A stretch of 60,444 nucleotides of DNA, filler included, from Nitrospinae bacterium RIFCSPLOWO2_12_FULL_45_22 (GTDB lineage: Bacteria > 2-12-FULL-45-22), in the NCBI GenBank assembly GCA_001803565.1. It is 7 parts of 7 records of this genome, joined end to end, with 100 filler letters (N's around TTAATTAATTAA, not from the genome) between each part and the next. Parts side by side here need not be neighbours in the genome. Positions count along the whole stretch, not along the records: positions 48,609 to 60,444 come from MHDQ01000111.1; 6 more parts are not named here. One strand, written 5' to 3'. Position 1 is the first letter of the stretch. Each line of letters starts with the position of its first letter. Below, one piece after another: positions 7,605-59,392 of the stretch. Both the position numbers and the translations under genes were made by a program. Below the pieces are notes generated by a model. It was not told the origin of the DNA, made no database searches, and saw nothing but the letters and a program-made list of their open reading frames with translations.

Positions 7605-7844
7605 AAGGTATAATGCTATACCAACAAATAAGAGACCCAGAAATATAGAGAGATGGTTCGTTATAAGCTCTTGCCTATCTTTCAAGAAATTCTTTATTAG
7701 CTGGGTTAGTCCCGGCTTAGCCTCTACTAATGGGGTTTCGCAATATTTGCAATAAGTATCTTTGGGCTTATTCGGAAAGTGGCAGTAAGGACAAAGTTTT
7801 ACTTCTATTATCTGACTGGCAGCTTTTCTGGAAGGTTCCTTCAT
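7572..7844 (-). CDS. Small zinc-ribbon membrane protein
   Basis: CPYC...CKYC followed by one hydrophobic helix; overlaps the PHP gene 3' end. Confidence 0.6.
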   Translation of the reverse strand: MKEPSRKAASQIIEVKLCPYCHFPNKPKDTYCKYCETPLVEAKPGLTQLIKNFLKDRQELITNHLSIFLGLLFVGIALYLLFKNSPPGLP

Positions 7845-7891
7845 GGTGTATAATCCCTTTCTTTCTGACTTTTGTACTTTTATATCTTTCA

Positions 7892-7972
7892 TGTCATTTC
7901 GACCGAAGGGAGAAATCTTTGTTTCGAAGATAGGAGAAATCTTTAAGATTCCTCGCTCCGCTCGGAATGATA
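7892..7972. repeat. TGTCATT...GGAATGA(C/T)A palindromic element
   Basis: TGTCATTTCGACCGAAGGGAGAAATCT...AGATTCCTCGCTCCGCTCGGAATGATA; related copy at 13851-13926. Confidence 0.7.
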
Positions 7973-8018
7973 ATGGTGGAATGAAAAAGTGCGAAATTAA
8001 AGCGCTTTCTGCAAAAGT

Positions 8019-9065
8019 GTGGTATCTAAAAAAATGATAGCATATGAGAGGTCAATTCGTCAAAAGAAAAAGGTTGTTACTTTAGGAAATGGCACCGGGC
8101 ATGGTGTTCTATTGGAGGGGCTGAAAAGGCTTCCTTATTCCCTCACCGCCATAGTTAATATAACGGATAATGGGGGCCATAGCGGGCTGTTGCGCCAGAG
8201 TATGGATACCCCTTCTCCGGGCGATTTACGTAAATGTATAACCAGCCTGGCCGATCCGGGACTAACCCTCACTAATCTTTTAAAGTATCGCTTTGAAGGG
8301 GAATTAGAAGGCGTATGCCTGGGTAACCTTATTATAGGAGCTTTGATAAGGCAGGAAGGTGCTCTTTCGTTAGCCAGCGCTAAGTTAGGTCAGATGTTAG
8401 GGTTGGAGCATGAAGTAATACCTGCATCCGATGAAAGCACCCACATATGTGCCCAGTTACCTGATGGAACTGTAGTAGTAGGCGAATGGGAAATAATAGA
8501 GCGGGGGCCTGAGCATAAAGATATCCAGAGACTATTCCTGCAAAAGACCATTCGGCCAGTCCCCAGGGCCTTAGAAGCAATAGGAGAGGCTGATTTTCTT
8601 ATTATAGGACCGGGTTCACTGCGTACTGGCATCATATCCCTCCTTCTGGTCGCGGGGATAAAGGAGGCTATCGGAAACTCTAAGGCCAACAAGGTATATA
8701 TCTGCAACCTTATGACCCAGCCGGGCCAGACTGACCATTTCGCTCTGCGCCGGCATATGGAAGAATTATATCGGTATTTACCGATAGAGATGGATTATAC
8801 CATTGTTAATGATCCAGGCCGAATCCCTCCTGATATTTTAAGGCTTGTGGAGGACTCTTACCCAGTTGTCATTGATCATCCTATATATCCTACAAAACTC
8901 GTAATTAAGGACTTAATGAAGGATATTGATTGGCAGGATATCATTCATAATGGCTGGAAGAGAAAAAGAAGCTCTTTTAGGTCGGGACCCCATTTGGTTG
9001 TTCACGACCCCGACAAATTAGCCGCTGCCTTAGCTCAGATTATTGATTCTCCAGAAATTGTTTAG
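8019..9065 (+). CDS. yvcK: YvcK/CofD-like gluconeogenesis factor (UDP-GlcNAc-binding)
   Basis: VVTLGNGTG, DNGGHSG, PGDLRKC, IGPGSL, CNLMTQPGQT, HDPDKLA. Confidence 0.85.
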   Translation: MVSKKMIAYERSIRQKKKVVTLGNGTGHGVLLEGLKRLPYSLTAIVNITDNGGHSGLLRQSMDTPSPGDLRKCITSLADPGLTLTNLLKYRFEGELEGVCLGNLIIGALIRQEGALSLASAKLGQMLGLEHEVIPASDESTHICAQLPDGTVVVGEWEIIERGPEHKDIQRLFLQKTIRPVPRALEAIGEADFLIIGPGSLRTGIISLLLVAGIKEAIGNSKANKVYICNLMTQPGQTDHFALRRHMEELYRYLPIEMDYTIVNDPGRIPPDILRLVEDSYPVVIDHPIYPTKLVIKDLMKDIDWQDIIHNGWKRKRSSFRSGPHLVVHDPDKLAAALAQIIDSPEIV

Positions 9066-9594
9066 CCATAAAGATAGGCTCATAATCATAATCCTTGAGG
9101 GCATCTCTTGAGCCTTCATCCCGGTCAACCAGGGAAAATACCTTTATTACCCGGCAGCCTAACTCCTCAACGGCTTTTATTGCCCGCATAGTGGATGCCC
9201 CGGTAGTGGTTACATCCTCAATGATAATGACCTTGGAACCCGCGGCCAAATCGCCTTCTATCAGCCCCATCTTGCCATGTTTTTTTGGTTCCTTTCGCAC
9301 AATGAAACCACTTAATGGGACCCCATTTATATAGCTATAAATTATTAAGGACCCTACAATCGGGTCCGCCCCAATCGTAGGCCCACCCACTGCATCTACC
9401 GAGACCCCACCCTTTACCATGGCCTGGATACGCTCCCAAAGGACAGAAGCAATAAGAAAAGCACCATAAGGATCGAGGCTGGTCTTTTTGCAATCCAAAT
9501 AATAAGAACTCTCTTTACCAGAAGAGAGGGTTATTTTCCCTTGAAAAAAAGATTTTTCTTTTAAAAGCTTAAATAGCTCGTCTTTCCAGGTCAT
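9040..9594 (-). CDS. pyrE: Orotate phosphoribosyltransferase
   Basis: TLSSGKESSYYLDC, VRKEPKKHG, IIEDVTTTGAS PRPP-binding loop, VDRDEG. Confidence 0.95.
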   Translation of the reverse strand: MTWKDELFKLLKEKSFFQGKITLSSGKESSYYLDCKKTSLDPYGAFLIASVLWERIQAMVKGGVSVDAVGGPTIGADPIVGSLIIYSYINGVPLSGFIVRKEPKKHGKMGLIEGDLAAGSKVIIIEDVTTTGASTMRAIKAVEELGCRVIKVFSLVDRDEGSRDALKDYDYEPIFMAKQFLENQ

Positions 9595-9598
9595 TCTA

Positions 9599-9731
9599 GG
9601 TCATTGGTTACTGGTCATTAGTCATTGGGTTATNNNNNNNNNNNNNNNNNNNNNNNNNNNNNNNNNNNNNNCTGGTCATTAGCCCGGCGATGTTTCATTA
9701 AACGAAATTCTATTTTCCAATGACCAATGAC
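9599..9731. repeat. Inverted heptamer-repeat tract (GGTCATT/AATGACC) spanning a 38-N scaffold gap
   Basis: GGTCATT GGTTACT GGTCATT AGTCATT...N(9634-9671)...CCAATGACCAATGAC. Confidence 0.65.
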
Positions 9732-9738
9732 AATACCT

Positions 9739-10015
9739 TTAAGGCTTTAGCATAGCTAAACAAGGCTCTAGGTTTGTAAACATACTTGGAATGCACTCAT
9801 GGAGATTGATTACTTCAATCTTTCCCCGGTACTCATTTATCCTTTTAGAGACCTCCTGGATCAAGGTATTTACTGCGCCAGGAGAAAAGAATTTTAACTC
9901 TTTGCAATCTATTGTTATCCTATCTATACCCCTTCTAATACTGAACTGAATGGTCTTTATTAATCTTTTAGCAGAATTAACATCCAACGACCCTTCTAAC
10001 CTCAAGACCAGCGCC
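9739..10015 (-). CDS. STAS domain protein, 5' truncated by contig end
   Basis: VLRLEGSLDVNSA...ITIDCKELKFFSPGAV. Confidence 0.7.
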
Positions 10016-10115
10016 NNNNNNNNNNNNNNNNNNNNNNNNNNNNNNNNNNNNNNNNNNNNTTAATTAATTAANNNNNNNNNNNNNNNNNNNNNNNNNNNNN
10101 NNNNNNNNNNNNNNN
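10016..10115. other. Artificial contig linker
   Basis: N run + TTAATTAATTAA (stops in all frames) + N run, 100 nt. Confidence 0.98.
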
Positions 10116-10133
10116 AATATAGGAGACTCTAGC

Positions 10134-11336
10134 ATGGCAAGGAAGGTAGCCATTGTTGGTGCGGGGCAGACTCCTTGCAAAGGGAGATGGGTGGAAAAGA
10201 CATACTGGGGCCTGGCACAGATGGCTGTAGCTGCGGCCATTAAAGATGCCGGTATCTCTGTCAAAGAGGTTGAGGGAGTAATTTATGGTATTTACAACGA
10301 TATATTTGAACTTTCTGCTATTCCGGAGCACGCCCTCCATGGGATTATAGGCATGGCTAACAAGCCGGGGATGAGGGTAACATGCGGTGGAGCAACCGGT
10401 GCTTATGCCATGCTCACAGCATATACCTGGGTAGCCAGTGGTCTCTATGATATAGTTATGTGTCTCGGAGTGGAGAAGGCTACCGATGCCTTTGATTTTG
10501 ACTCCCAGACCTCTACACCAGAAGTCATTAAAACCATTGCCTGGTCTGGAGATACTTTCTTCGAGCGAGAGATAGGTTGGACAGCTTCTGACAGTTATGC
10601 CGAGGTAGTCCTTGCCTATATGGATATGTATCCCGGTGATCTCTCCGATGAGGTTTCGGCTAAAATCAGCGAGCTCCTTTGTCAACAAGCCCAGAATAAC
10701 CCCTATGCCCAGAGAAGAGGAGAGATCGTAACCGCTGATATGGCCATGAAATCTAGATATATTGTCTATCCGTTTAAGCTCCTGGAGACTTGCGTGTATA
10801 CTGAAGGGGCCGGAGCTATTATCTTCGCTGAGGAAGAAAAGGCTAAGGCTATTTGCCGAAATATGGCTACCCCGCCAGTATGGATCACTGGCATCGGTGC
10901 GGCCAATGAACACCACGTGGCGGGTATCCAGGGTAATCATAAAACCATGCATCGTATCCTATCGGACCATATCGCTGCCAGGGCCGCTTACCAGATGGCA
11001 GGCATTACCAATCCCCTTAAAGAGATCACGGTAATCGAATTACATGATGCCTATATCAAACAGCTCCAGATTACTATGGCCGAGATGGGATTTGTTCCTC
11101 TGGGCCGGGCAGATGACCTGGTCAAAGAAGGGCTGATGCTCCCCGGTGGTCCTATCCTGGTGAATCCTTCAGGTGGATTGACCTATGCGGGTCACTATGT
11201 TGGGGGGTCCAACATGATGTCGTGCTGGAGCGCCCGACGAGAGCTTATCACCCGGGGTCTTGACCGGGCCCTGGTTCATAGTACCGGTTCAACTATTGCC
11301 CAATATGCTTGTATTCTGATTCTGGAGAGGGGGTAG
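10134..11336 (+). CDS. Thiolase-family protein (SCP-x/archaeal type)
   Basis: VAIVGAGQT, RVTCGGATG (active Cys), IELHDAY, VNPSGGL..GHYVGG. Confidence 0.88.
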   Translation: MARKVAIVGAGQTPCKGRWVEKTYWGLAQMAVAAAIKDAGISVKEVEGVIYGIYNDIFELSAIPEHALHGIIGMANKPGMRVTCGGATGAYAMLTAYTWVASGLYDIVMCLGVEKATDAFDFDSQTSTPEVIKTIAWSGDTFFEREIGWTASDSYAEVVLAYMDMYPGDLSDEVSAKISELLCQQAQNNPYAQRRGEIVTADMAMKSRYIVYPFKLLETCVYTEGAGAIIFAEEEKAKAICRNMATPPVWITGIGAANEHHVAGIQGNHKTMHRILSDHIAARAAYQMAGITNPLKEITVIELHDAYIKQLQITMAEMGFVPLGRADDLVKEGLMLPGGPILVNPSGGLTYAGHYVGGSNMMSCWSARRELITRGLDRALVHSTGSTIAQYACILILERG

Positions 11337-11339
11337 CTC

Positions 11340-12311
11340 ATGCCAGAAAAAGTAATCCCTTTACATATGATCCCGGATAAGGGATCCGAGATACTGATTA
11401 TCAATGGGAAACAATATCTCCAGACCAATACCGCTATGTTTACCTTTTACAAACGGAGTAAAGGTGAGTTATCACCTTATTTTCTCGGCCTTAAGGAAAA
11501 GAAGATCTATGGGGCAAAGTGTACCAACTGTGGGATAATTCGAGTGCCTCCGTTTATGGAGAGATGCCCAGACTGTGAGTTTGCAGCCATGGAACTTATG
11601 GAGATGCCTGATAGGGGAAAGCTGCTCCATACCCCACCCATTACCTATTTTGCCCATAGTCTGTTTCAGGACATGGCGCCATTTGGTCGGGGAAGGGTCT
11701 TGCTAGGTGAATCAATTACTGCACTTCCTATTCTGCTCTATACTACTAAAGGAGTTTTAAGGCCCGGGATATTCAAAAGGGACACCCCGGTTAAAGTAAT
11801 CTTTAGGGATGAGCGCGTTGGTGCCCCAACTGATATCTTTGCGGTACCCATGAGTGAACTTTCAGAAGAGCAGATAGGTAAAAATGGGCTCCAGGAAAGC
11901 GAACTGGATTGGACCAACCCCCAGGAACCCCAGGTAAAGGAGACAGCCGAGGGACATAAGGCCCTGGATAAGGCCCTTATTGGACTATCAAAACTGTCTG
12001 ATGGTGTGAAGACCAGTGCGAGGGCTCAACATGATTTGGCAGGATGGCGCCGCGTAATTCGGGTAAATACCTCCGGTGGGTCCTTTGGGATAATGATTGA
12101 GGACGGCAGATTAGAGATAAGCGCAGGAGAGAACTATTCACCAGACTTTATAATAGTCTGCGAAGACCCAGGCTTATTCACCGAATGGGTAGAATATCGA
12201 GAGTCCTTAACCAATGCCATCATCTCGGCTAAGCTCTGGATAAGCAAAAATTCAGAATTCAAGACCATTTTTAAGCTAGATCGGGTCCCTCGATCCCTTA
12301 AACGCACTTAG
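11340..12311 (+). CDS. DUF35 (Zn-ribbon + OB fold) protein with C-terminal SCP2-like domain
   Basis: GAKCTNCG...ERCPDC Zn ribbon; C-terminal FGIMIEDGRLEI...PDFIIVC...LTNAIISAKLWI sterol-carrier-like; adjacent to thiolase. Confidence 0.75.
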   Translation: MPEKVIPLHMIPDKGSEILIINGKQYLQTNTAMFTFYKRSKGELSPYFLGLKEKKIYGAKCTNCGIIRVPPFMERCPDCEFAAMELMEMPDRGKLLHTPPITYFAHSLFQDMAPFGRGRVLLGESITALPILLYTTKGVLRPGIFKRDTPVKVIFRDERVGAPTDIFAVPMSELSEEQIGKNGLQESELDWTNPQEPQVKETAEGHKALDKALIGLSKLSDGVKTSARAQHDLAGWRRVIRVNTSGGSFGIMIEDGRLEISAGENYSPDFIIVCEDPGLFTEWVEYRESLTNAIISAKLWISKNSEFKTIFKLDRVPRSLKRT

Positions 12312-40401: not shown

Positions 40402-41400
40402 ATGATGGACCTTTCGATCATCTGCACTTACCGGTGTATCTCTAAATGCCGGATGTGTAATATCTGGCAAAACCCCTCCAATCCCAAGGATGAACTGAGC
40501 TTGGAAACTCTCGCAAAGCTGCCGAAAGGCTTAGGCCACGTGAATATTCAGGGCGGCGAACCAACCCTGCGGGCGGATCTGATGGAAATCATCGATACGG
40601 TTTATCCTAAAGCCCGCGTGACCGAGATCAGCTCGAATGGGCTGCTACCCGACCGGTTGGTCCCGATTATAAAAAAATATCCCCGTGTTAAAGTGCGGGT
40701 CAGTCTCGAAGGAGATGAAAAGACCAACAACAGGATCCGCGGTGAGTCGGACGGATTCAAGACCAAGGTCGAAGGTTTAAAAAAACTTAAAGCGGCCGGC
40801 GGAAAAGATCTCGGTTTCGCGATCGTGGTCCAGGACGAGAACGCTTCCCAATTGGCCTCTGTTTATGAAGCGGCCAAATCGATAGGCGCGGATTTTTCGG
40901 CCTCAGCGCTCCATAATGGCTGGCAATTCCACAAAGCCGATAACTGTCTTCGCGATCAAGCGACCGCCGCGCGGGAGATCGAAAAAACAATCACCGCTTT
41001 TATCCGGTCAAACTCGATCAAGTCCTGGTTTCGGGCGTACATGATCCTCGGGCTCAGGAAACAGATCATGGGGCATGATCCGTCAGAGAAATGTACGGCC
41101 GGCACCGGTTTCGCTTTTATCGACCCGTGGGCCAATGTGTTCGCGTGCAATGTTAGAGCGGATCTCCTGATGGGCAATCTTCGAAAGCAGTCCTGGGAAG
41201 ATATTTTATCGAGTTCGGCGGTCCGGCGATGCCGAACGCAAGTGGTTCAATGCGAGAAAAAATGCTGGAAAGTGGTGAACGCACGCGTCGCCATGAGGTC
41301 GGCCCTCATACCCCGCTTTCCGAAGTTCGGTACTATCCGGTGGGTGGTCACAAACAAGATCCGGGCCGCGATCGGCCTGGACGTGCTGTTCGATCACTAA
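40402..41400 (+). CDS. Radical SAM/SPASM-domain protein
   Basis: TYRCISKCRMC, GGEPTLR, CTAG..IDPWANVFAC, GNL, C-terminal CEKKC. Confidence 0.88.
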   Translation: MMDLSIICTYRCISKCRMCNIWQNPSNPKDELSLETLAKLPKGLGHVNIQGGEPTLRADLMEIIDTVYPKARVTEISSNGLLPDRLVPIIKKYPRVKVRVSLEGDEKTNNRIRGESDGFKTKVEGLKKLKAAGGKDLGFAIVVQDENASQLASVYEAAKSIGADFSASALHNGWQFHKADNCLRDQATAAREIEKTITAFIRSNSIKSWFRAYMILGLRKQIMGHDPSEKCTAGTGFAFIDPWANVFACNVRADLLMGNLRKQSWEDILSSSAVRRCRTQVVQCEKKCWKVVNARVAMRSALIPRFPKFGTIRWVVTNKIRAAIGLDVLFDH

Positions 41401-41935: not shown

Positions 41936-42017
41936 CCGGCCCCCCCCGGTTTACCTGGTTTGTGGTTAAATATCTAGAGACATTTTAAACAACAAAAAGA
42001 TCGGAGAGCGGCAAAGA

Positions 42018-42365
42018 ATGGATATTACAGAAAACAAAAAGACTTCGCTTAAAGATAACGAAATAAAGGCATTAATGAGGTTCAAGGAATTATTATTGGA
42101 AAGGTATAGCCTGGTGGACATAAAACTATTTGGCTCTAAAGCAAGAGGGTTGGATACCCCAGATTCTGATATTGACATATTGATTGAAATTGAAGAATTA
42201 AGCCCAGAAATTGAGACAGAAATTGGCCATATTGCGTTTGAAATTAATCTGGAATATAACTGCTTTATATCAACTATTATTTTTAGTAGAAAAGAACTCG
42301 AAGAGGGTCCTCTGTCTGAGTCCCCATTATATAAGAACGTTCAATATGAGGGTGTGAAGATATGA
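42018..42365 (+). CDS. MNT nucleotidyltransferase antitoxin
   Basis: LFGSKARG..DSDIDILI. Confidence 0.88.
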   Translation: MDITENKKTSLKDNEIKALMRFKELLLERYSLVDIKLFGSKARGLDTPDSDIDILIEIEELSPEIETEIGHIAFEINLEYNCFISTIIFSRKELEEGPLSESPLYKNVQYEGVKI

Positions 42366-42760
42366 CCTCAGAAGAGAAAAGGCGAGAGTTGGCTATTTAT
42401 AGGCTAAAACAGGCCGAAGAAAGCTTGGATGAGGCAAGGTTTTTACTTTCACCACGGGCTGTTATTAATAGGGCTTACTACACTATGTTTTATGCAACTC
42501 TAAGTTTGCTTATCTTCGAAAAGTATTCTTCTTCGAAACATATTGGGGTGATTTCATATTTTAATCAACACTTTATAAAAACAGGCATTTTCTCCAAGGA
42601 ATTGGGATGGGCATTTAGCCGGGCCTTTGATCTGAGACAAAGGAGCGATTACAAGGAATATGTGACTATTACCTATGAACAGGCCAAGACTATTATAGAG
42701 GAGGCGGAAAGATTCGTTGATACCGTGAAAAGACATTTACGGCAGAAAAACTTGATTTAA
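42362..42760 (+). CDS. HEPN-domain toxin
   Basis: INRAYYTMFY, KHIGVISYF, RQRSDY; ATGA overlap with the MNT gene. Confidence 0.88.
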   Translation: MTSEEKRRELAIYRLKQAEESLDEARFLLSPRAVINRAYYTMFYATLSLLIFEKYSSSKHIGVISYFNQHFIKTGIFSKELGWAFSRAFDLRQRSDYKEYVTITYEQAKTIIEEAERFVDTVKRHLRQKNLI

Positions 42761-42825
42761 ACAGGGTTTACCGGAGAAATAAAGGATACCCAAGATTTAT
42801 GAGATTAAAGTGTCTTAACGGATAA

Positions 42826-43059
42826 ATGAAGATAAGGAGGGTAATAACTATTTGGGCTCCTTATATATATGCTGGAGATACTGGTAATATTCTCAATAAA
42901 AGACAAGAGAATATCGGCCATTATAGAAAAGATGGTGATAGGATTATAATCTATGACCGGCAATGGAATAAGTTAAGTAAGGGTACCTGGAAAATTCTGG
43001 CAAGGATTGGGAAAGAGGCAGTATCTTTGATAGCTATTATAGAAGACTTGGCTATATAG
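42826..43059 (+). CDS. Hypothetical protein or fragment
   Basis: 77-aa ORF only; no recognised motif. Confidence 0.3.
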   Translation: MKIRRVITIWAPYIYAGDTGNILNKRQENIGHYRKDGDRIIIYDRQWNKLSKGTWKILARIGKEAVSLIAIIEDLAI

Positions 43060-43219
43060 AAAAGAAGGGTGAACAAATAAGCATATTTGATAAGGAATGG
43101 AATAGAAAGGGTTACGCAATAGTTGATGATAAAGAGCAAGGATATTTTAACAAGGAATCTGAAAGGGTAGATTCAGATGAGCTTCTCAGGGAATTAGAAA
43201 TTCTAATCATCAGGGATAA

Positions 43220-43807
43220 ATGAAGAAAAGAATAATAAATTATATTGGTAAAGTCGTTAAGAAAGCGTTTGAAGATTTTCTGTATAAGGTCCTTGCCGAC
43301 TGGTTATCTAGATTTGACGAGGAAGAAGAGGAAAGCGAAGATAATAGCGACATTGAGGAAAGATCTAGAGAACCAAAAAGTAATATGGAAGAGGTTAGAA
43401 TTCAATGGGAAGGCCCTTATTTAATCGAAAGGGTTCCGAAATTAGATATTTCAGAGGAATTTGGTGTTTACATGATAACTAGACGATGGGGCACAAACAG
43501 AGAAAAGATTTTGTATATAGGTAAAACATATTGGCGAGATTTTAGGAGTCGAGTAAGGGAGCATCGAAGGGAGTGGTTAAATGAAGAAGTAGGAAATCTT
43601 AAAGTTAGATTAGGCATTATAAAACTTTCAAGGGGGAAAAAAATCTCTGTGCAAAGGGTTCAGGATATTGAAGCGTTATTAATTTATTGGTGTCAGCCAA
43701 GATATAACACCATATATAAAGATTCCTACAATGGAAGGGATTTAAAAATCATAAACGAGGGCAGACGAGGACCTATCGATAACATTATAACAACTGATGA
43801 TATCTAA
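43220..43807 (+). CDS. GIY-YIG nuclease family protein
   Basis: GVYMI...LYIGKT...RVREH...EALLIY..QPRYN. Confidence 0.8.
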   Translation: MKKRIINYIGKVVKKAFEDFLYKVLADWLSRFDEEEEESEDNSDIEERSREPKSNMEEVRIQWEGPYLIERVPKLDISEEFGVYMITRRWGTNREKILYIGKTYWRDFRSRVREHRREWLNEEVGNLKVRLGIIKLSRGKKISVQRVQDIEALLIYWCQPRYNTIYKDSYNGRDLKIINEGRRGPIDNIITTDDI

Positions 43808-44021
43808 GAATGATTATGTATTGTAATCATATCTTATAGTGTTGCTTACCAGTATATTTGATGAATATCAAACTATTAAATCTGATTTTTCTTATGCCTT
43901 TTTCTGACCTATGCTAGTCCATAGTTAGGAGGGAGACAGTTTCTTTAACAAAAAACTAGAATGAAAATGTAGGGACAGCGCCCATTTATTCCCAACAGGG
44001 CGTTATGTTAAGGATTGAACA

Positions 44022-48608: not shown

Positions 48609-50497
48609 CCATCTCTTAGGGCTTCCTGTCTTAAGCCTATCTATTGAAGGGCCTATACGGGTAGAGGACCTGGGAGCGGATTTTGCCGCTGATAAATCGG
48701 CCCCTCATCTCCTTTATACCCTGGGTAGGGAAGGTAATTTCAAAGGGCCAGCCGGCTTAGAGCTAAAGATTTCCCGGGTGTTGCAAGATAAGCAGCCACT
48801 ATTACTAACTGGGAGATTAGGATTAAGGAACAATAACATCTCATATGCCCCCCTGAAACTCCCCCTCATACAGTTGCAAGGGAGTGTGGAGTTTACCAGA
48901 GAGATGGTACAAACCCAGACCTTGCAGGGTAAATGGGGCCAAAGCCCATTCATATTAAAAGGGATCATGAAAGGATACCGAGGGAAGAATCCCTCCCTGA
49001 AATTGCAGGTCTCTACTGAACTTGATCTCTCTGAGCTAAAAAACCAGCTCTCTTACCCTTTCCTGGATGAGCTTACTTACTACGAGGGCATCCCTTCTCT
49101 TCAAGTAAATATCCAGAACCCGGCTAATCAATGGCAAATAGCTGGCACTTTGGATCTGACTAATACGGGATATCAGTATAAGGGGATAAAGAAGGATAGT
49201 GGCGTACTCAACCTGCTCTCTTGTGATCTGCAACCAGACCCAGGAGAGGGCTGGCGGATAGATAAATTCGGGCTAGAGCTAGGGGATATAGTAGCTTCTG
49301 GCCAGGGGAGGATTGTTAATCAGGATTGGCAGTTGGAGTTAGAGACTAATAAATTTGATATCAACCAGATGTTATCCTTTCTACAAGAAGATGCCCAGCA
49401 CCAGGGTAAAAATTGGGTTCAGGGAACATTAGGGCTCAAAGGCACCTGGCAGAGTGCTTCTCCGCCCAATATCAAATTCAACCTGACAGTTGACCAGATA
49501 GACCTGGACAAACTCTTTTCTAATTCGGGAGATAAAAACAATGAGTTTTTGCGGAACAATTTGCTACAGGGGAGTATAACAGTTAAAGGAGGCAAATTTC
49601 TAGGGCTTAGTTTTTCGCAGCTCAAAGCAGACATGCTAGCCCCCAAGCCTGGGGTAATGGCTGGGGATCTGGAATTAAAGCTCCACCAGGGATATTTTAA
49701 AGGTAAGACTTCTATCCAGATAGACTCTTCTCAGGGTCCTGGTTACTATTTGGCTGGCTCGGGCAGGAAGATAAAGATCGAAGGGCTTATCCNNNNNNNN
49801 NNNNNNNNNNNNNNNNNGTTACTATTTGGCTGGCTCGGGCAGGAAGATAAAGATCGAAGGGCTTATCCAGGAATTGAACCACGGCCATAGTGTATTGAGT
49901 GGTTCTCTCGGCTTGACCTTAAAGCTAGAAACCCAGGGCCGTACCGCTGAGGCCAGAAAGGCCTCTCTCAATGGCAAGGTATCAATTAGGGTAAAGAATG
50001 GTGTCCTTAAAAGATACTCCCTGATCTCCAAGATATTCTCCTTCTTGAATGTTTCCCAACTATTGGAACTAAAGCTACCTGATTTAGTCGCTAAGGGCAT
50101 ACCTTATAAAGAGATCGGGGGAGATTTTCAGATAAAAAATGGGATAGCCCAGACCGATAATCTCTTTCTCGCCAGCCGCTCATTAAATATGGCCGCTATT
50201 GGCCAAATAGACCTAACGAGAAAGTCCCTTAATCTTACTATAGCCGTTCAACCCCTCCAGACAGTAGACAAGGTGGTAGCCCTGGTCCCTATTCTGGGGC
50301 ATATATTGACCGATGAGAAGAAGAGCTTGATCCTGGCTTTCTTTAACGCAAAAGGCCCCTGGAATGATCCGTCGGTTACGCCTATACCTTTTGCCTCGCT
50401 GAGGAAAGGCATACTAGGAATCTTTAAGAGGATATTTTTACTCCCCAAAGATGTTGTCAAAGAGCCCTGGGAGGTCCTGTTACCCAAGCTACCGTAA
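48609..50497 (+). CDS. AsmA-like/YhdP-like protein, C-terminal part (5' truncated)
   Basis: Beta-rich repeats; YKEIGGDFQIKNGIAQTDNL..GQIDL..PLQTVDKVV..VPILG..GPWNDPSV; split only by an overlap gap (49742-49792 repeated after N 49793-49817). Confidence 0.85.
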
Positions 50498-52480: not shown

Positions 52481-55400
52481 ATGAAAAGGGAGAAAATATC
52501 TTTCTGGATATTTCCTTTTATTGCCTTGGCATTGGCTTTCTTTGGTGTGAAAGCTGACAGTTATATTTCTGCGAATTTTTCGGAAGACGACCCATCTCTT
52601 TTTAAAGCCGCTGAATCGGACTGGAATGCTCAGCAGTGGGATAAAGCTTTAAGCAATTACAAAAAGCTGATTGAAAGATCCCCAGATAGTCCTTATGCTG
52701 CCAAATCTTATATCAGGCAAGGCATGTATTTCAAATACCAAAAAGAATGGAGCAAAGCCATCGCCGAGTATGAAAAAGCCGTAAGGGGATTCCCGGGGAC
52801 TCGTGATGCCCAGGATGCTAAGACTGCTATTGCTGCCGTTTACTACTTTCGAGAAGAATTTCCCCAGGCCCTTTCTCTATTCCATGAAGTGCTTCAGGAG
52901 ACTTCTGATTGGGACCAGATCAAATACTGTTCATATTGGATAAGAGAGATTAAACGAAGAATGACCTTTGAAGATAAAAAATGTTCCAAATGTGGCCCGG
53001 CCGCGCTTAATGAAGTATTCAGGTTATCTGATATGCAAGTTTCTTTGGATGAGATATCCAATATGATACCGGCTAAAAAGGACAGGATATCTATGCAGGA
53101 TTTAAAAAAGGTAGCTGAGAAAAAAGGCTTAAAGGCCATAGGAGTTAATCTAACCTTGACTCAACTGCTGGAGGTAGATAAGCCCGTAATTGCCTTTCTC
53201 AAATATAACCATTACGTCGTTGTTACCAGATATCAGTCCGGCAGAATTACCTTTATCGATCCAGGAGAAAGAAATGCGGTTAAATTCCTAGCTGAAAAGG
53301 ATTTTAATAACCTTTGGAGTGGTGACACCTTAGTTTTTTCGCCTCTCAAGCCAAAAGCTGCGCTTAGGTTTCTCAGTGAGAAAGAGATGGAGAGGATCCG
53401 AGGGGCAGTCTGTTGGTGTTGTCCACCCTCAGGTTTAGGGGATCGTCGGGATAATCGAAACGTGGAGTATGATACTACCAGTTGTCAACTTAGCGGGAGT
53501 TCGGCACAACAAGGGATGCCAATCCTGATGGTAAATACTGTCAATCTTAATATGTTGGTGCAGGATACTGATTTGGTTTACTCGGGCCGAGGGCCAACCA
53601 TTGAGATAAGGAGAACTTATAACGCTGATGATCCGAGGGATGGCCCCTTTGGTCGAAGCTGGACCTTTAACTACAATCTTACTTTAACGGAAAATCCGGA
53701 TAAGAGTATCGATATAAGAATAGAATCTGGGAAGATCGACCACTTTATTTATACTGATCAAGGAAGCTATATCGCTCCTGAAGGGGTATATGATACCTTA
53801 GCGAAAAACACTGATGGTACTTATTCCCTCAAGATTAAAGAAGATAAGACTATCCAAAATTTTAGCGCCGATGGGAGGCTTATTAGTATTGCTGACCGTA
53901 ATGGAAATACTATTACCTTTCAATACGATGATGGTGGCCGACTGATTTCTGTGATTGATCCTGTTAGCAGAAAAACTACTTTTACTTATGGCTCTAATGG
54001 CAAAATAACTACCTTAACAGATCCTCTTGGTAGAACTGTAATCTATAATTATGACCAGAATGACAACTTAATCAGAGTTATAGATATGGCTGGAACTCAG
54101 GTAGGTTTCACTTACGATGAGAATAGCTATATGACAGCAATAACCACTCCCAAGGGGACCACGACTATCGCATACGAGAGGTCTTCCGACGGTTATGCCA
54201 TCAAATCTATAACCGATCCTTTAAGTTATACAAAAAATTACGATACCCGTGAGAGCCACACTCAGGTGAGAATAATTGATCCTGGAGGTAATCCGACTGT
54301 TTATAACAACAATTATGAAGGTCTAACAGAAAGTATTATTGATGCCCTGGGCAATAAAACTAGTTTTCAATACGATTCCTTGAGCAACCGGACCAAAATT
54401 GTTGATGCTGGCCAACGCACAACTACCCTCAGTTACGATACCCGCGGCAACGTAACGAAGATAACAGACCCTTTGGGAAACAAGGTAGAGTTTAGCTATG
54501 ATACCCATGATAATCTCACTCAGATGATAGAGCCCTCAGGAAATGCCTATCTTTATAAATACGATGCAAAAGATAATCCAGTAGAGATAACCGATCCCGA
54601 GGGCGAGAAGACTATCTTTGGCTATGATACATTTGGTCAGTTGGCCAGCTTAACCGATGCTAAAGGGAATACTACTGCCTTTGCCTATGATGATCAGGGT
54701 AATCTTATTAGTATGAGAGATGCCTTGGGTAATACCTGGTCTTATGCCTATGACGCGGTAGGTAGGTTGACTTCTCGTACGGATGCAAAAGGAAATACCA
54801 CCTATTACAATTATGATGGTATTAATAGACTAACTAAAATTATTTACCCTGATGGAAGCACCACCCAATACACTTACGAATGCTGTAATTTAACCAGTAT
54901 TACAGACCAGAATGGAACCTCTACCTTTGAATACGATCAGGTGAACAGACCGATCCGTTTCACCAATACTGATAATAATACTATAGAATATGGCTATGAT
55001 GCAGTAGGTAACCTTATTTCCCTCACCTATCCTGATGGTAAAGTGGTGCACTATGAGTATGACGAGGTTAATCGCTTGAGAAAGGTGACCGATTGGCTTA
55101 ATAATATCGCGATCTATGGTTATAATGCTGTGGGTAACCTCATGTATAGCTATACTCCCAACGGGCCGATTGTTGCCTACCAATACGATAAGGCCAATAG
55201 ATTAATATCTTTAATTAATGCAAAATCAGATGGCTCAATAGTCTCCAGCTATAATTACACCTTAGATAGCCTGGGAAACAGGTTAGATATTTCTCTTTAC
55301 GAACCCCTTGCCCCAACGCTTACACCAACTAGTATGAGTTATACGTATGACCTGGACAATCGGATTGTCTCAGCTAATGGAAAAAGCTTCATTCACGATG

Positions 55401-56269
55401 CTAATGGGAATTTAATAGGGGTGGATAATAAGACCACATATACCTATGACTTCAGAGATATGCTTATCCAAGCTTCATCCGATGGCTATAACATACAATA
55501 TAAATATGATAGCCTGGGGAACAGGATAGCCAGAACCGAAAATGGGGCTACCACCAGGTACATAGTAGATCCGAATCGGCTATTATCTCATGTGCTGGCT
55601 GAAACCGATGACCAAGGCAATATAACTAGCTATTATGTGTATGGCTTAGGCCTTATATCAAAGATAACCCCTGGCGGGAAAGCTTACTTTTACTATTATG
55701 ACGGGTTAGGGAGTACCGTTGCCATAAGCGACTTCACTGGGAACTTAGTGAATAAATATTCCTACAACCCATTTGGAAAGGTTACAAACAGTGAAGAGGC
55801 CATCTCTAACCCATTCAAATATGTTGGGAGATATGGGGTGATGGATGAGGGTAATGGACTGCTGTATATGCGAGCAAGGTATTATGACCCTGAGGTGGGA
55901 AGGTTTATAAATAAAGACCCGATTGGGTTGTTGGGTGGGTTAAATATGTATGCGTATGTGGGGAATAATCCCGTTAATAATGTTGACGCAAATGGTCAGC
56001 AAGTATTAGAAACAGCTGTCGCTGTGATAATTACCACAGCCATAGTAACATATGCTGCTTACAGTGTTGCCAAAGCTTATTACAAAGCTGTTAGAACCAT
56101 GTTTAGTAATCTAGGTAATCTCAATAAAGTTAATGAGGCCGCGTTGGATTTAGAGAAAGATCTTTTTATATCCCAGTTCTCGCCAGGAATAGACAAATTG
56201 CTTGATGAATTGATTAAAAGGAGTCCAGAGTATAGAGAATACAAGAAGAAAATACAGGAATGTCCTTAA
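52481..56269 (+). CDS. Secreted TPR + C39 peptidase + DUF6531 + RHS/YD-repeat protein
   Basis: Signal peptide; BamD-like TPRs; CGPAAL/NHYVVV/FIDP; RTYN..GPFGRSW; many YD repeats; RARYYDPEVGRF..DPIG..NPVNNVDANG core. Confidence 0.92.
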   Translation: MKREKISFWIFPFIALALAFFGVKADSYISANFSEDDPSLFKAAESDWNAQQWDKALSNYKKLIERSPDSPYAAKSYIRQGMYFKYQKEWSKAIAEYEKAVRGFPGTRDAQDAKTAIAAVYYFREEFPQALSLFHEVLQETSDWDQIKYCSYWIREIKRRMTFEDKKCSKCGPAALNEVFRLSDMQVSLDEISNMIPAKKDRISMQDLKKVAEKKGLKAIGVNLTLTQLLEVDKPVIAFLKYNHYVVVTRYQSGRITFIDPGERNAVKFLAEKDFNNLWSGDTLVFSPLKPKAALRFLSEKEMERIRGAVCWCCPPSGLGDRRDNRNVEYDTTSCQLSGSSAQQGMPILMVNTVNLNMLVQDTDLVYSGRGPTIEIRRTYNADDPRDGPFGRSWTFNYNLTLTENPDKSIDIRIESGKIDHFIYTDQGSYIAPEGVYDTLAKNTDGTYSLKIKEDKTIQNFSADGRLISIADRNGNTITFQYDDGGRLISVIDPVSRKTTFTYGSNGKITTLTDPLGRTVIYNYDQNDNLIRVIDMAGTQVGFTYDENSYMTAITTPKGTTTIAYERSSDGYAIKSITDPLSYTKNYDTRESHTQVRIIDPGGNPTVYNNNYEGLTESIIDALGNKTSFQYDSLSNRTKIVDAGQRTTTLSYDTRGNVTKITDPLGNKVEFSYDTHDNLTQMIEPSGNAYLYKYDAKDNPVEITDPEGEKTIFGYDTFGQLASLTDAKGNTTAFAYDDQGNLISMRDALGNTWSYAYDAVGRLTSRTDAKGNTTYYNYDGINRLTKIIYPDGSTTQYTYECCNLTSITDQNGTSTFEYDQVNRPIRFTNTDNNTIEYGYDAVGNLISLTYPDGKVVHYEYDEVNRLRKVTDWLNNIAIYGYNAVGNLMYSYTPNGPIVAYQYDKANRLISLINAKSDGSIVSSYNYTLDSLGNRLDISLYEPLAPTLTPTSMSYTYDLDNRIVSANGKSFIHDANGNLIGVDNKTTYTYDFRDMLIQASSDGYNIQYKYDSLGNRIARTENGATTRYIVDPNRLLSHVLAETDDQGNITSYYVYGLGLISKITPGGKAYFYYYDGLGSTVAISDFTGNLVNKYSYNPFGKVTNSEEAISNPFKYVGRYGVMDEGNGLLYMRARYYDPEVGRFINKDPIGLLGGLNMYAYVGNNPVNNVDANGQQVLETAVAVIITTAIVTYAAYSVAKAYYKAVRTMFSNLGNLNKVNEAALDLEKDLFISQFSPGIDKLLDELIKRSPEYREYKKKIQECP

Positions 56270-56423: not shown

Positions 56424-56577
56424 GCATATGCACTTGACTCCGGTTGGATTTGTATCTTATTGATATAATTGATAATTTTCCATACATGGTTATTTGCAGT
56501 TTACCTCTCGTAAATGCAGTATTTTTACTAAGTTACGTTGTTTTTGTAAGATATTTGCCGGAGACAAGTGCATATGC
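56424..56577. mobile_element. 154-bp MITE
   Basis: TIR GCATATGCACTTG(A/T)CTCCGG (19/20); flanking direct repeat AAAATCTAAATTAT at 56410-56423 and 56578-56591. Confidence 0.9.
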
Positions 56578-56589
56578 AAAATCTAAATT

Positions 56590-56874
56590 ATGGTTCATAT
56601 TCTGCCTTATTTCATGGGCAATGAAAGATGGTACCATATAATTGAAAACCACGATGATTTAGCCAGCTATTTTTACGAGGTTCTGGAGGCAATTGAAAAA
56701 CCAGATTTTGTTATTAGAGGAAATAAAGGGACCTTAAAGGCAACAAGGAATATTGGGAAAAATAAATGGCTGGTAGTTATTTATAGAGAAGTCTCTGAGA
56801 AGGACGGATTTGTAATAACAGCCTATTTTTTAGATAAAAGACCAAAAGGAGAAGTAATATGGCAACGAGACTGA
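56590..56874 (+). CDS. Putative RelE/BrnT-like toxin, probably lacking its native N-terminus
   Basis: ERWYHIIENH..EAIEKPD..WLVVIYRE..DGFVITAYF; the first residues derive from a duplicated gene start. Confidence 0.6.
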   Translation: MVHILPYFMGNERWYHIIENHDDLASYFYEVLEAIEKPDFVIRGNKGTLKATRNIGKNKWLVVIYREVSEKDGFVITAYFLDKRPKGEVIWQRD

Positions 56875-57110
56875 GGAAAGACGATTTAATTAAAAACTGT
56901 CTTACTTTAGCATCAGACCTTTTTAAACTTCCACTTGAGCATATGTGGATTGATTATGATAGGGAAGCTGATGTTCTATATTTGAGTTTTCGGAAACCCC
57001 AAAGGGCCACAAAAACAATCGAAACTAATGATGATATCCTGATCAGAAAAGATGGCAATAAAATTGTTGGAATAACAATATTAAATGCTAGTAGGGATAG
57101 AGGAGCTTAA
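56859..57110 (+). CDS. DUF2283 antitoxin-like protein
   Basis: IDYDREADVLYLSF..DDILIR..IVGITILNAS. Confidence 0.85.
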   Translation: MATRLRKDDLIKNCLTLASDLFKLPLEHMWIDYDREADVLYLSFRKPQRATKTIETNDDILIRKDGNKIVGITILNASRDRGA

Positions 57111-57235: not shown

Positions 57236-59392
57236 ATGGTATTAAAATCTAAATTATGGTTCATAGTTTTTGCCTTAATTTCAGGAGTGATATTCCTATC
57301 CCCCTCTACAGTCCTTGCTCAAACGCCTATCCCCTGTGGTCAAACCCTGACAGGTTCTATCAGCACAGTAGGAGAAAAGGATGAGTACACCTTTACAGCC
57401 ACAGCAGGGGATGCGGTCACTATTAGGCTTGTTGTCACTTCAGGTGACATGAATCCACTTCTGGAGCTATATGACTCAACAGGTACAAGGATTGCTTATG
57501 ATTATGATTCTTCTGGAAACTATGTGGCTATTGATAAAGCTCTCACAACAGGTGGCCCCTATACCATTGTAGCACGTGATTATGGCAATGATGAGACAGG
57601 AAACTATAATCTCACCTGGCAGAGGCCGAATAACCCCTGCAATGCTACAAGCGTAACCTGTGGACAGACCACCTCTAGTTCCATAAGTGCCATAGGAGAG
57701 CAAGACTTCTACACCTTTACAGCCACAGCAGGGGATGCGGTCACTATTAGGCTTGTTGTCACTTCAGGTGACATGAATCCACTTCTGGAGCTATATGACT
57801 CAACAGGTACAAGGATTGCTTATGATTATGATTCTTCTGGAAACTATGTGGCTATTGATAAAGCTCTCACAACAGGTGGCCCCTATATCATTGTAGCTCG
57901 TGATTCTTACAATGATGAGACAGGAAACTATAACCTTACATGGTACAGGCTCAACAATCCTTGCAATGCCACGGCTATTTCCTGTGGGCAAGCTGTGCCA
58001 GGACCCATCAGTACTCCCGGTGAGTTAGATTTTTATACCTTCACAGCCAACGCTGGAGATGTGGTAATGATTCGTCTGGTAAGGACTTCAGGGCCTCTCT
58101 CTCCATACATGGAGTTATATGATGCGAAAGGAGAGAAGTTAGGTACCGGCAATAATAGGATTGAAAAACGTATAGAGACTAGTGGTACTTTCAGTATCAT
58201 GGTTAGTGACTCTAGTGGCAGCCGTACTGGCGGCTATGGTTTAATCTGGCAACGGCTCAATAGTCCCTGTAATGGGACATCTATTTCCTGTGGACAAATT
58301 ACATCAGGGTCAATTGATACCGCGGCAGAAATAGATCTTTATATATTTAACGCGAGTGCGGGGGATGAACTAAAAATTATCCTGGATAGCAAATCCAGCT
58401 CTTTTAGCCCATATATGGAATTATACGATGGAAATGGAACAAAGCTGGCCAGTAGTTCCAGTCAAATAGGGAAACGTTTAGATAATGGAGGTACCTTTGC
58501 CTTATTGATAAGCGAGTCCAGCGGAGTAAGGACTGGCAGCTACAGACTGAACTTGAATAGGGTTAATACTCCGTGTGCTGTCATTGATCTGGAAAAACCA
58601 ACGGTTACGGTTATAGCCCCAAATGGTGGTGAAGTAATTTTACAAGGATCTGTTTTTAAAATTAGCTGGTTGTCCGATGACAATGTCAACATTACCTCCC
58701 AGGAAATCAGATTATCAAAGGATGGTGGCGCTTCTTTCCCGACGGTTATTGCCAGTGGCTTAGCAAAAGACATTCAATCTTTTGAATGGTCAGCTCCGAA
58801 AGACTTGGATACAACAACCCAGGCACGCATTCGAGTAGTGGCCAAAGATGCAGCCGGTAATATAGGGCAGGATGACAGTAACGATAATTTTGTATTGCTC
58901 GGCTTCACCCAACCCGAATCAAGAGTTGTTCATTATGAATATGATAAACTAAATCGACTCACAAAAGTCATCTATGAAGATGGAAGTAGTATTATCTATA
59001 AGTATGATGAAATGGGTAATCGCACATCAATGGAAATAGGGCTAGAGGAAGGGATAGCCATCTACACCAATAAATCCAGCTATAAGACAGGTGATACTCT
59101 AACCCTTTCTATTAGTATATATAATACTGGTGCTAGCTATATAGCCGATGAGTTCTTAGGGTTCTTGCTTCCTGATGGGAGTTTACTCTTTTTTGATCAG
59201 TCGCTTAATAAAGAGATATCTTCTGGATATAAACTGCCACCAACTCCATTCTTTTCCGTGACCCTCCCAGCATCAATGCCCCCTGGCACCTATGCTGCCT
59301 TTGCGGTGCTAGCAGTGCCAGGTTCTGTCCAAGCCGGCAAACCCCAATTGATCGGAGATATCAGCCTCGCTTATTTCACTTTTAATCCTTAA
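57236..59392 (+). CDS. Secreted protein: 4 PPC-like repeats, Ig-like domain, isolated YD segment, C-terminal beta domain
   Basis: Signal peptide VLA-Q; repeats CGQ..GEKDEYTFTATAGD..P.LELYD..G.Y.L; PTVTVIAPNGGE; YEYDKLNRL..YKYDEMGNRT. Confidence 0.85.
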   Translation: MVLKSKLWFIVFALISGVIFLSPSTVLAQTPIPCGQTLTGSISTVGEKDEYTFTATAGDAVTIRLVVTSGDMNPLLELYDSTGTRIAYDYDSSGNYVAIDKALTTGGPYTIVARDYGNDETGNYNLTWQRPNNPCNATSVTCGQTTSSSISAIGEQDFYTFTATAGDAVTIRLVVTSGDMNPLLELYDSTGTRIAYDYDSSGNYVAIDKALTTGGPYIIVARDSYNDETGNYNLTWYRLNNPCNATAISCGQAVPGPISTPGELDFYTFTANAGDVVMIRLVRTSGPLSPYMELYDAKGEKLGTGNNRIEKRIETSGTFSIMVSDSSGSRTGGYGLIWQRLNSPCNGTSISCGQITSGSIDTAAEIDLYIFNASAGDELKIILDSKSSSFSPYMELYDGNGTKLASSSSQIGKRLDNGGTFALLISESSGVRTGSYRLNLNRVNTPCAVIDLEKPTVTVIAPNGGEVILQGSVFKISWLSDDNVNITSQEIRLSKDGGASFPTVIASGLAKDIQSFEWSAPKDLDTTTQARIRVVAKDAAGNIGQDDSNDNFVLLGFTQPESRVVHYEYDKLNRLTKVIYEDGSSIIYKYDEMGNRTSMEIGLEEGIAIYTNKSSYKTGDTLTLSISIYNTGASYIADEFLGFLLPDGSLLFFDQSLNKEISSGYKLPPTPFFSVTLPASMPPGTYAAFAVLAVPGSVQAGKPQLIGDISLAYFTFNP
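57386..57887 (+). repeat. Intragenic direct repeat, 324-bp period
   Basis: 57386-57563 appears identical to 57710-57887 by eye. Confidence 0.9.

Follow-up and report, generated by a model that had tools for sequence, protein, structure and literature searches.

A C39 peptidase domain followed by a double-glycine leader-like segment forms a candidate self-processing cassette in an RHS protein of a Nitrospinae bacterium

The C39 cysteine peptidases of peptidase-containing ATP-binding cassette (ABC) transporters (PCAT) and AMS (ABC transporter maturation and secretion) proteins, such as LahT150, PCAT1 and ComA, are fused to an ABC transporter, reside in the cytoplasm and process short precursors in trans. 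They recognise hydrophobic residues at positions -12, -7 and -4 of a short helix, then Gly (-2) and a small residue (-1). A domain with the same fold and the same Cys-His-Asp triad, and an adjoining segment with the same recognition features, were found in P0001, an RHS protein of Nitrospinae bacterium RIFCSPLOWO2_12_FULL_45_22 (GenBank assembly GCA_001803565.1). The gene lies in a stretch of 60,444 nucleotides (hereafter the window) consisting of seven joined parts of this genome, in the part derived from record MHDQ01000111.1. In contrast to the PCAT/AMS proteins, P0001 has no ABC domains, and its putative substrate element is internal, on the same chain and C-terminal to the peptidase, with an RHS cage of ~950 residues as cargo. 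The order of parts is a signal-like N-terminus, TPR repeats, C39, the leader-like segment, a Cys motif, DUF6531, the RHS shell, the Rhs core and a C-terminal tip. The best reading of this sequence is a Sec-exported, polymorphic-toxin-type RHS cage with an N-terminal self-processing cassette (i.e. TPR, C39 and leader-like segment), in which the C39 peptidase probably cuts after G308-A309 and frees the TPR-C39 part from the cage.

Other described systems resemble parts of this arrangement. For StbD-CT, the C39 toxin domain of a CdiA-like protein, a Cys-dependent self-cut in cis after Gly157-Gly158 is reported under reducing conditions only and, according to its authors, the oxidising periplasm restrains self-cutting (bioRxiv 10.64898/2026.05.07.723447). 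The C39 toxins of CdiA and type VI secretion system (T6SS) effectors (i.e. StbD-CT and Cpe1) are like the proposal for P0001 in that C39 lies in a polymorphic toxin and cuts its own chain. As these toxins are described, however, C39 is the C-terminal payload, the site is upstream of the domain and the cut occurs in the target cytosol, whereas P0001 has its C39 on the N-terminal side, outside the cage, with the putative site following the domain and a different, C-terminal tip as presumed payload. A StbD/Cpe1-like role of C39 as the toxic payload of P0001 was considered and ruled out on the basis of this N-terminal position outside the cage and of the separate variable tip that follows the DPIGL motif. 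Features that P0001 has in common with the T6SS Rhs effectors RhsA and TseI and with the BC cocoons of Tc toxins are the RHS cocoon, the aspartyl autoprotease motif towards the C-terminus and the variable C-terminal toxin. In RhsA and TseI an N-terminal cut parts a delivery module from the cage, as proposed here for P0001; the RhsA cut is made inside the cocoon by a mechanism called unknown, and the TseI cut depends on two Glu residues (PMC8765631). P0001 differs from these effectors in its proposed dedicated cysteine peptidase with its own recognition helix and in its predicted export via a signal peptide instead of a T6SS.

C39 domains near signal peptides have also been noted in giant Omnitrophota proteins, with the comment that they "might cleave the giant proteins" (West-Roberts et al., bioRxiv 10.1101/2023.11.21.568195), and a C39 architecture cluster is mentioned in 10.64898/2026.06.07.730766. 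As in P0001, C39 lies near the N-terminus beside a predicted signal peptide, and one of the related loci described below is from an Omnitrophota metagenome-assembled genome (MAG). The accessible text on these giants names no cleavage motif or RHS link, whereas the P0001 family has ~1,200-2,000 residues and a defined site. In the available portion of Zhang et al. (2012), Tox-PL-C39 is listed solely as a toxin domain (PMC3482391). A full-text literature search returned no description of an RHS protein in which a C39 domain is trailed by a double-glycine site of its own, with supplementary architecture tables outside the search. As far as the sequence allows a comparison, P0001 appears to combine known kinds of processing (i.e. 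C39 leader processing and RHS maturation by autoproteolysis), and the arrangement itself would be a variant. The C39 peptidases of the FapD, FilB and PA2778 families are extracytoplasmic, stand-alone enzymes, and PA2778-type proteins combine C39 with TPR. These families have C39 outside ABC transporters, as P0001 does, and none is fused to RHS; the corresponding NCBIfam models matched P0001 weakly (E ~1e-6, 27-28 bits against cut-offs of 150-475), so that it is not a member. Cytoplasmic location and action in trans, which the initial annotation gave for the C39 domains of bacteriocin transporters, do not hold for all C39 domains, given these NCBIfam families and the cis processing reported for StbD-CT.

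To collect homologues, residues 140-345 of P0001 were compared, without a profile, with 1.84 billion representatives, which gave 1443 proteins at E <=1e-3. Among the best 150 of these, 46 proteins (47 stretches) span the linker between C39 and cage, and 13 more were obtained by a word-based search with residues 293-440. All counts of conservation given here refer to a MAFFT alignment of the resulting 60 stretches from 59 proteins, which share 21-44% identity with the query; the motif was counted by alignment column, as a strict regular expression missed true family members. By sequence there is thus a C39-leader-RHS family of at least 59 sequence clusters from uncultured bacteria, with named relatives in an Omnitrophota, a Planctomycetia and a Nitrospirae MAG. 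Of the first 46 proteins, 36 run on into DUF6531 or RHS and the remainder are mostly contig fragments, whilst 39 of 41 members with a complete-looking N-terminus pass a crude signal rule.

The peptidase domain of P0001 was matched by PF03412 with an E value of 6.5e-20 (71.8 bits against a cut-off of 22) over profile positions 11-130 of 133. A sequence search of the PDB aligned residues ~167-289 with LahT150 (6mpz), PCAT1 and ComA, and the best Foldseek match of an AlphaFold2 (AF2) model of residues 26-350 was the LahT150-leader complex (i.e. 6mpz; template modelling score of 0.75 on the target). The region first flagged, positions 52991-53425, corresponds to residues 171-315. Its proposed triad of C171 (in KKCSKCGPAAL), H244 (in FLKYNHYVVVT) and D260 (in RITFIDPGERN) was found at these positions in the translation and coincides with the Cys, His and Asp of LahT150, PCAT1 and ComA in the PDB alignments. 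The initial annotation of a C39-type triad was further borne out by the homologues, in which the catalytic Cys is present in 58/58 sequences (two have N-terminal gaps), the His in 60/60 and the Asp in 56/60, with Glu in two and Asn in two others. Since all three residues are conserved across the family, the peptidase appears to be kept catalytically intact. Pfam detected no ABC transporter domain in P0001, which places it outside the PCAT/AMS group, and TIGR03796 reached 46.4 bits against a cut-off of 853.3, over the peptidase part only. The catalytic Cys of P0001 is part of a C168-x-x-C171 pair, which was seen in 7 of 58 sequences.

The leader-like segment begins 10 residues past the C39 domain. 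The match to the leader consensus that had been claimed for it was verified by a position check, L298 (-12), M303 (-7), I306 (-4), G308 (-2) and A309 (-1) filling the canonical positions. Unlike the N-terminal leader of a short precursor, the segment is internal (residues 298-309) in a protein of 1262 residues that has its own signal-like start. Six-frame translation of the window yields three matches to a loose leader pattern, so that the motif alone is not beyond chance; as only the match in P0001 falls in a long open reading frame (ORF), the window holds no other candidate substrate.

Conservation of the motif behind C39 in homologues, put forward as a check in the initial annotation, held. 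Position -12 is L in 48 of the 60 stretches (V/I in 8, P in 3 and A in 1), -8 is E in 40, -7 is M in 38 and L in 14 (M/L 52/60), and -4 is I in 21, L in 17 and V in 7 (I/L/V 45/60). Gly occupies -2 in 59/60, and -1 is G in 39, A in 6 and S in 3 (G/A/S 48/60), with K in 7, R in 3, T in 1 and F in 1. The spacing of 10 residues from L(-12) to G(-2) is free of indels in 60/60, and G(-2) follows the end of C39 by 29-32 residues in 52/60. Minima of column entropy at 298, 302, 303, 306 and 308 correspond to one helix face plus the Gly, whilst variability in this region is highest over the ten residues ahead of the motif (2.87 bits for this linker versus 2.19 for the leader-like segment). Residues following the site differ by subfamily, being x-C-x-C-C-P in most, H-H-L-H-G in 14/60 and C-C-G in a few. 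A conserved P side next to a variable P' side is the look expected of a protease recognition site. All 17 proteins retrieved with residues 293-440 carry PF03412, tying the motif to C39 in the same chain; among the hits inspected, those of PCAT length and a group of C39 proteins of ~470 residues continue differently and are without the segment.

Coincidence, or decay into a functionless relic, might be read into the three loose matches in the window and into the mere 27 of 60 homologues that are fully canonical. Such an origin is very improbable in view of the position-specific conservation in 59 proteins of 21-44% identity, the indel-free spacing and the invariant catalytic Cys and His; the place of the motif directly after C39, together with its conservation in the homologues, is by alignment beyond chance. 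A lipobox reading of GAVC was also tried and ruled out, as the Cys does not adjoin the small residues and homologues have K/R or H there.

The motif recurs in C39 proteins that are not of the RHS type, lying behind both C39 copies of P0069 and behind one copy caught by the pattern in P0049. These proteins (1258 and 3237 residues, respectively) have two or three C39 domains with an LxxxE..x[IL]xGA motif, and P0069 also has an FKBP domain. Their sequences suggest self-cutting polyproteins.

Structure models were used to examine how the segment relates to the peptidase. In the AF2 model of residues 26-350, obtained from 39 aligned sequences with a mean predicted local distance difference test (pLDDT) value of 85.8, the segment is helical at residues 300-305 and extended at 307-308; pLDDT was 86 for residues 286-295 and 97 for 296-305, and residues 313-350 were disordered. 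In the models residues 295-310 docked on the C39 domain, an outcome in favour of the docking of residues 298-309 for which the initial annotation had suggested a check, with L298, M303 and I306 making the best-defined contacts. When the C39 domain (140-291) and the segment (292-325) were modelled as two chains, the score was 0.63 as compared to 0.00 for the best of three controls, passing a mark that is reached by 58 of 80 solved complexes and by 2 of 110 mismatched pairs. Contact agreement between runs was at least 61% and the partner chain had a pLDDT of at least 58. The interface comprised Cys171-Gly172, Asn243-His244-Tyr245 and the groove residues 202-206, 209, 220-225, 227-228, 239, 280 and 282 on the C39 side, and residues 293, 295-298, 300 and 302-310 on the segment side; L298, M303 and I306 were among the lowest-error pairs, and 302-310 lay against Cys171 and His244. 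The two-chain result supports binding of the segment by C39 but does not demonstrate it. In the published LahT150-leader pose, positions -1 to -3 are linear in the subsites and -4 to -11 form a two-turn helix (PMC6363468), with leader positions -4, -7 and -12 occupying a hydrophobic groove (PMC6363468; PMC10885120). The modelled pose of the P0001 segment matches this arrangement. Taken with its conservation, the segment is very likely a substrate-like element that binds the groove.

Groove binding could have consequences other than a cut in the own chain. C39 might spare its own chain and act only in trans, either on the site in neighbouring copies or on other double-glycine proteins of the genome. 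Classical C39 domains do work in trans, as reported in PMC6363468 and PMC10885120, the two-chain model suggests that the segment can bind as a separate chain, and the substrate search covered the window only, so that substrates elsewhere in the genome are conceivable. Against purely intermolecular action, C39 and the motif are kept a tightly conserved distance apart, the docking by AF2 is in cis through a confidently modelled connection, the motif was never found without C39 in the same chain among the 17 proteins retrieved with it, and no other long ORF with a leader-like sequence occurs in the window. We therefore regard trans action alone as rather improbable.

An uncleaved helix could alternatively act as a pseudo-substrate latch that blocks the C39 groove in an autoinhibitory or structural role, the peptidase attacking other proteins (e.g. 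of prey or envelope) once the latch is displaced. The docked pose fits inhibition equally well, and the K or R that 10/60 have at -1 could be unfavourable to a cut. Further domains ahead of TPR-C39 in some relatives suggest a separate role for the N-terminal part, and the Cys- or His-rich residues after the site could conceivably lock the active site by a disulfide or a metal. Conversely, G(-2) in 59/60 and a small residue at -1 in 48/60 are needed by a scissile site and not by a blocker, no conserved Pro or other obvious blocking residue is present at +1, and an intact triad needs a substrate, of which no other was found in the window. A latch is accordingly an unlikely explanation, if a less remote one than trans action alone, and cutting by the own C39 is preferred. 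The relatives concerned are P0014 (1634 residues), with a glycosyl-hydrolase TIM barrel ahead of TPR-C39, and P0010 (2031 residues), with DUF7948 and beta-propeller repeats in this place. To judge from these two sequences, the part released by the proposed cut can be an enzyme or a binding module.

Several observations weigh against cleavage at this site. All three hydrophobic positions are filled in 37/60 stretches, G-[GAS] is present in 47/60 and both together in only 27/60. Canonical cleavage sites are given as GG, GA and GS (PMC10885120), and the subclade with K (7) or R (3) at -1 therefore falls outside this rule, besides the single sequences with T and F. A 42-residue leader region of P0001 matched no leader family in NCBIfam at E values up to 10. 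The putative oxyanion Gln usually found six residues before the catalytic Cys in PCAT/AMS domains is not kept, Asp165 replacing it in P0001, and Q occurs in just 9/60 sequences at what is a poorly aligned column. The initial annotation was correct on this absence but gave it too much weight; in LahT150 the Gln is 4.3 A from the thiohemiacetal oxygen and other residues are suggested to serve instead (PMC6363468), and the caveat is hence weaker than it seemed. The pass of the two-chain model may reflect memory of solved C39-leader complexes, in which case it would signify likeness and not binding.

A further objection concerns the compartment. Lying behind a signal peptide and TPR repeats, the C39 domain would be expected to work outside the cytoplasm, where a Cys peptidase beside three Cys residues could be oxidised and inactive. 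This concern arises because auto-processing of StbD-CT needed reducing conditions in vitro; by analogy, the P0001 peptidase may have little or no activity if this anaerobe does not maintain a reducing envelope. StbD-CT also offers a possible precedent for redox gating of C39 self-cutting. It is conceivable, though doubtful, that C39 and the double-glycine helix behind it make up a portable cassette for single-turnover self-excision, which works outside the cytoplasm and is gated by xCxCCP or HHLHG via a disulfide to, or metal ligation of, the catalytic Cys/His. Nicking of the cage would then be confined to a reducing or metal-poor compartment and a two-chain toxin may stay tethered, and the idea would span the RHS toxins of the Omnitrophota, Planctomycetia and Nitrospirae MAGs as well as the multi-C39 proteins. 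Cys150 (in KYC, 52928-52930) is present in 22/35 sequences of the Cys class, 4/13 of the His class and 0/6 others, counts that ignore phylogeny. Many homologues have a P-C-P-C motif directly after the signal peptide. Both Cys150 and the P-C-P-C motif may be disulfide partners of xCxCCP.

Under the preferred reading of self-cleavage, the leader-like helix would, after export and folding, be held by its own C39, with L298, M303 and I306 in the hydrophobic groove, and thereby bring G308-A309 to Cys171/His244. A single cut after A309, in cis or between copies, would part signal-TPR-C39 (~31 kDa) from the RHS cage, which would then start at VCWCCPP. The cage would retain its C-terminal payload for release by the usual Rhs aspartyl autoprotease at DPIGL. 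Separation might detach the cage from a module that is bound to the envelope or serves targeting, or its product might be a nicked two-chain toxin. Should the cut be real, the N-terminal maturation of an RHS cage, a step called unknown for RhsA (PMC8765631), would have a defined enzymatic mechanism, and the leader-C39 pair of bacteriocins and ribosomally synthesised and post-translationally modified peptides would be seen to serve again in cis and extracytoplasmically, for a protein of >1,000 residues. A sizeable uncharacterised toxin family is also defined in uncultured lineages, including those of the Omnitrophota, Planctomycetia and Nitrospirae MAGs, and the compact module (~170 residues with a 12-residue site) is a candidate protein-engineering tool.

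Table 1. Positions of P0001 features and of the downstream gene P0002 within the window
Feature	Residues	Position	Strand	Basis or remark
Whole gene P0001	1262 aa	52481..56269	+	ORF translation, Pfam, NCBIfam
Signal-peptide-like N-terminus (MKREK, hydrophobic core, VKA/D)	1-25	52481..52555	+	Inspection, hydropathy
TPR repeats	~39-145	52595..52915	+	Pfam TPR families; AF2 helical repeats, pLDDT >90
Peptidase_C39 (PF03412)	169-288	52985..53344	+	Pfam, PDB alignments, Foldseek, homologues
Catalytic codon Cys	171	52991-52993	+	
Catalytic codon His	244	53210-53212	+	
Catalytic codon Asp	260	53258-53260	+	
Double-glycine-leader-like segment, L298-SEKEMERIRG-A309	298-309	53372..53407	+	Proposed scissile bond A309/V310
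Cys-rich motif VCWCCPP, would-be new N-terminus	310-316	53408..53428	+	Alignment; low pLDDT in both models
Conserved stretch G-L-G-x(4)-N-x-N-x-E-Y-D	318-331	53432..53473	+	Alignment
DUF6531, N-terminal cap region of RHS shell	351-421	53531..53743	+	PF20148, E 1.6e-12
RHS/YD repeat shell	~430-1090	53768..55750	+	PF05593, 11 stretches, E 9.6e-94 (Pfam); TIGR01643; AF2 beta-spiral
Rhs-associated core	1095-1173	55763..55999	+	TIGR03696, 87.6 bits vs cut-off 32.5 (NCBIfam)
DPIGL autoprotease motif	1146-1150	55916-55930	+	Sequence
Variable C-terminal tip, hydrophobic helix 1175-1197	~1151-1262	55931..56266	+	Hydropathy, homologue comparison
Secreted protein P0002 (4 PPC domains, Ig-like domain, 2 YD repeats), downstream		57236..59392	+	Pfam

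The remaining parts of P0001 (Table 1) are those of an RHS toxin. The putative Sec-type signal, judged by eye and by a hydropathy rule, was supported by the VKA/D end and by residues 5-24, which rank first of the two most hydrophobic 19-residue stretches of the protein, the second being 1175-1197 in the tip. No PAAR, prePAAR or VgrG-binding family was detected by Pfam or NCBIfam, and NF041261, the enterobacterial RHS element core protein, reached 198 bits against a cut-off of 2000, so that P0001 is not a member. An AF2 model of residues 290-1262 (25 sequences; mean pLDDT 80.3) formed a continuous beta-spiral shell with a pLDDT of ~90, and confidence fell exactly past residue ~1147, i.e. at the DPIGL site. 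Residues 320-329 were ordered (pLDDT 83) only when modelled together with the RHS shell, whilst the Cys motif at 310-316 stayed unconfident. The proposed new N-terminus would therefore be a flexible Cys-rich arm on a short element that packs on the cage.

The tip contained a long helix at 1180-1209 in an otherwise poorly predicted region (pLDDT <50), and the model is consistent with an encapsulated, largely unfolded, membrane-active payload. Residues 1181-1262 had no match in the other 45 family proteins, whereas the shell did. Pfam assigned no family to the tip, and an ESM Atlas search gave a best score of 0.86, under the meaningful level, with Ntox-type clusters as leads only.

Several related loci have the layout usual for polymorphic toxins, judging from their gene order. 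Orphan RHS C-terminal fragments occur in L007 and L011, and small ORFs trail the gene in L007, L010, L011 and L012; these fragments and ORFs (L007 12276-13217 and 13214-13603; L011 12847-14013; L010 3910-4278; L012 12166-12594) would include candidate immunity genes. In L012 the C39-RHS gene is split over three consecutive ORFs (6927-12239), representing a pseudogene or an assembly error. PilM/N, PilO, an AAA ATPase and a secretin are encoded just 5' of the C39-RHS gene on the contig from the Planctomycetia MAG (L002 2-5675), a hint, from one locus only, of a possible outer-membrane route. A public metagenome contig of 10.6 kb (L003 1-10627) is identical to the window across the C39-RHS gene and its neighbours.

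The surroundings of P0001 were examined by Pfam scans of 37 ORFs of the window. No ABC-transporter or T6SS family was found among them, in agreement with the initial annotation that no such genes are nearby. Directly 3' of P0001 is a strongly hydrophobic 65-residue ORF (56444-56641) with a TTG start, 175 bases past the RHS stop codon, which could encode an immunity protein for a membrane-active tip or be spurious. It is followed by a toxin-antitoxin-like pair (56590-57110) in which a 94-residue ORF overlaps a DUF2283 gene. P0002 lies further downstream and has homologues 3' of the C39-RHS gene in L007 (14817-16930) and L009 (13608-16888), with 35-39% identity over ~350-580 residues. Such a neighbour was thereby present in three of the five loci having at least 3 kb of downstream sequence. 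P0002 may be a partner of the C39-RHS system.

Other genes of the window encode 2-hydroxyglutaryl-CoA dehydratase, LUD/Fe-S proteins and acyl-CoA dehydrogenase, i.e. metabolism of an anaerobe type, together with an SNF2 helicase and a PEGA-domain protein upstream of P0001. Two overlapping ORFs (48778-49890 and 49826-50497) match parts 654-892 and 1036-1224 of the 1224-position YhdP profile, and represent a split or frameshifted gene or a sequencing error; these YhdP-like fragments suggest a diderm envelope. A radical SAM/SPASM enzyme of the peptide-maturing type is encoded at 40402-41400, ~11 kb upstream along the stretch, and no link to the RHS gene was found. A second toxin-antitoxin-like pair, of nucleotidyltransferase/HEPN type, occupies 42018-42760, and a dip in G+C content to 0.355, with a GC skew of +0.29, was observed at 42001-44000 as compared to a content of ~0.42-0.49 elsewhere.

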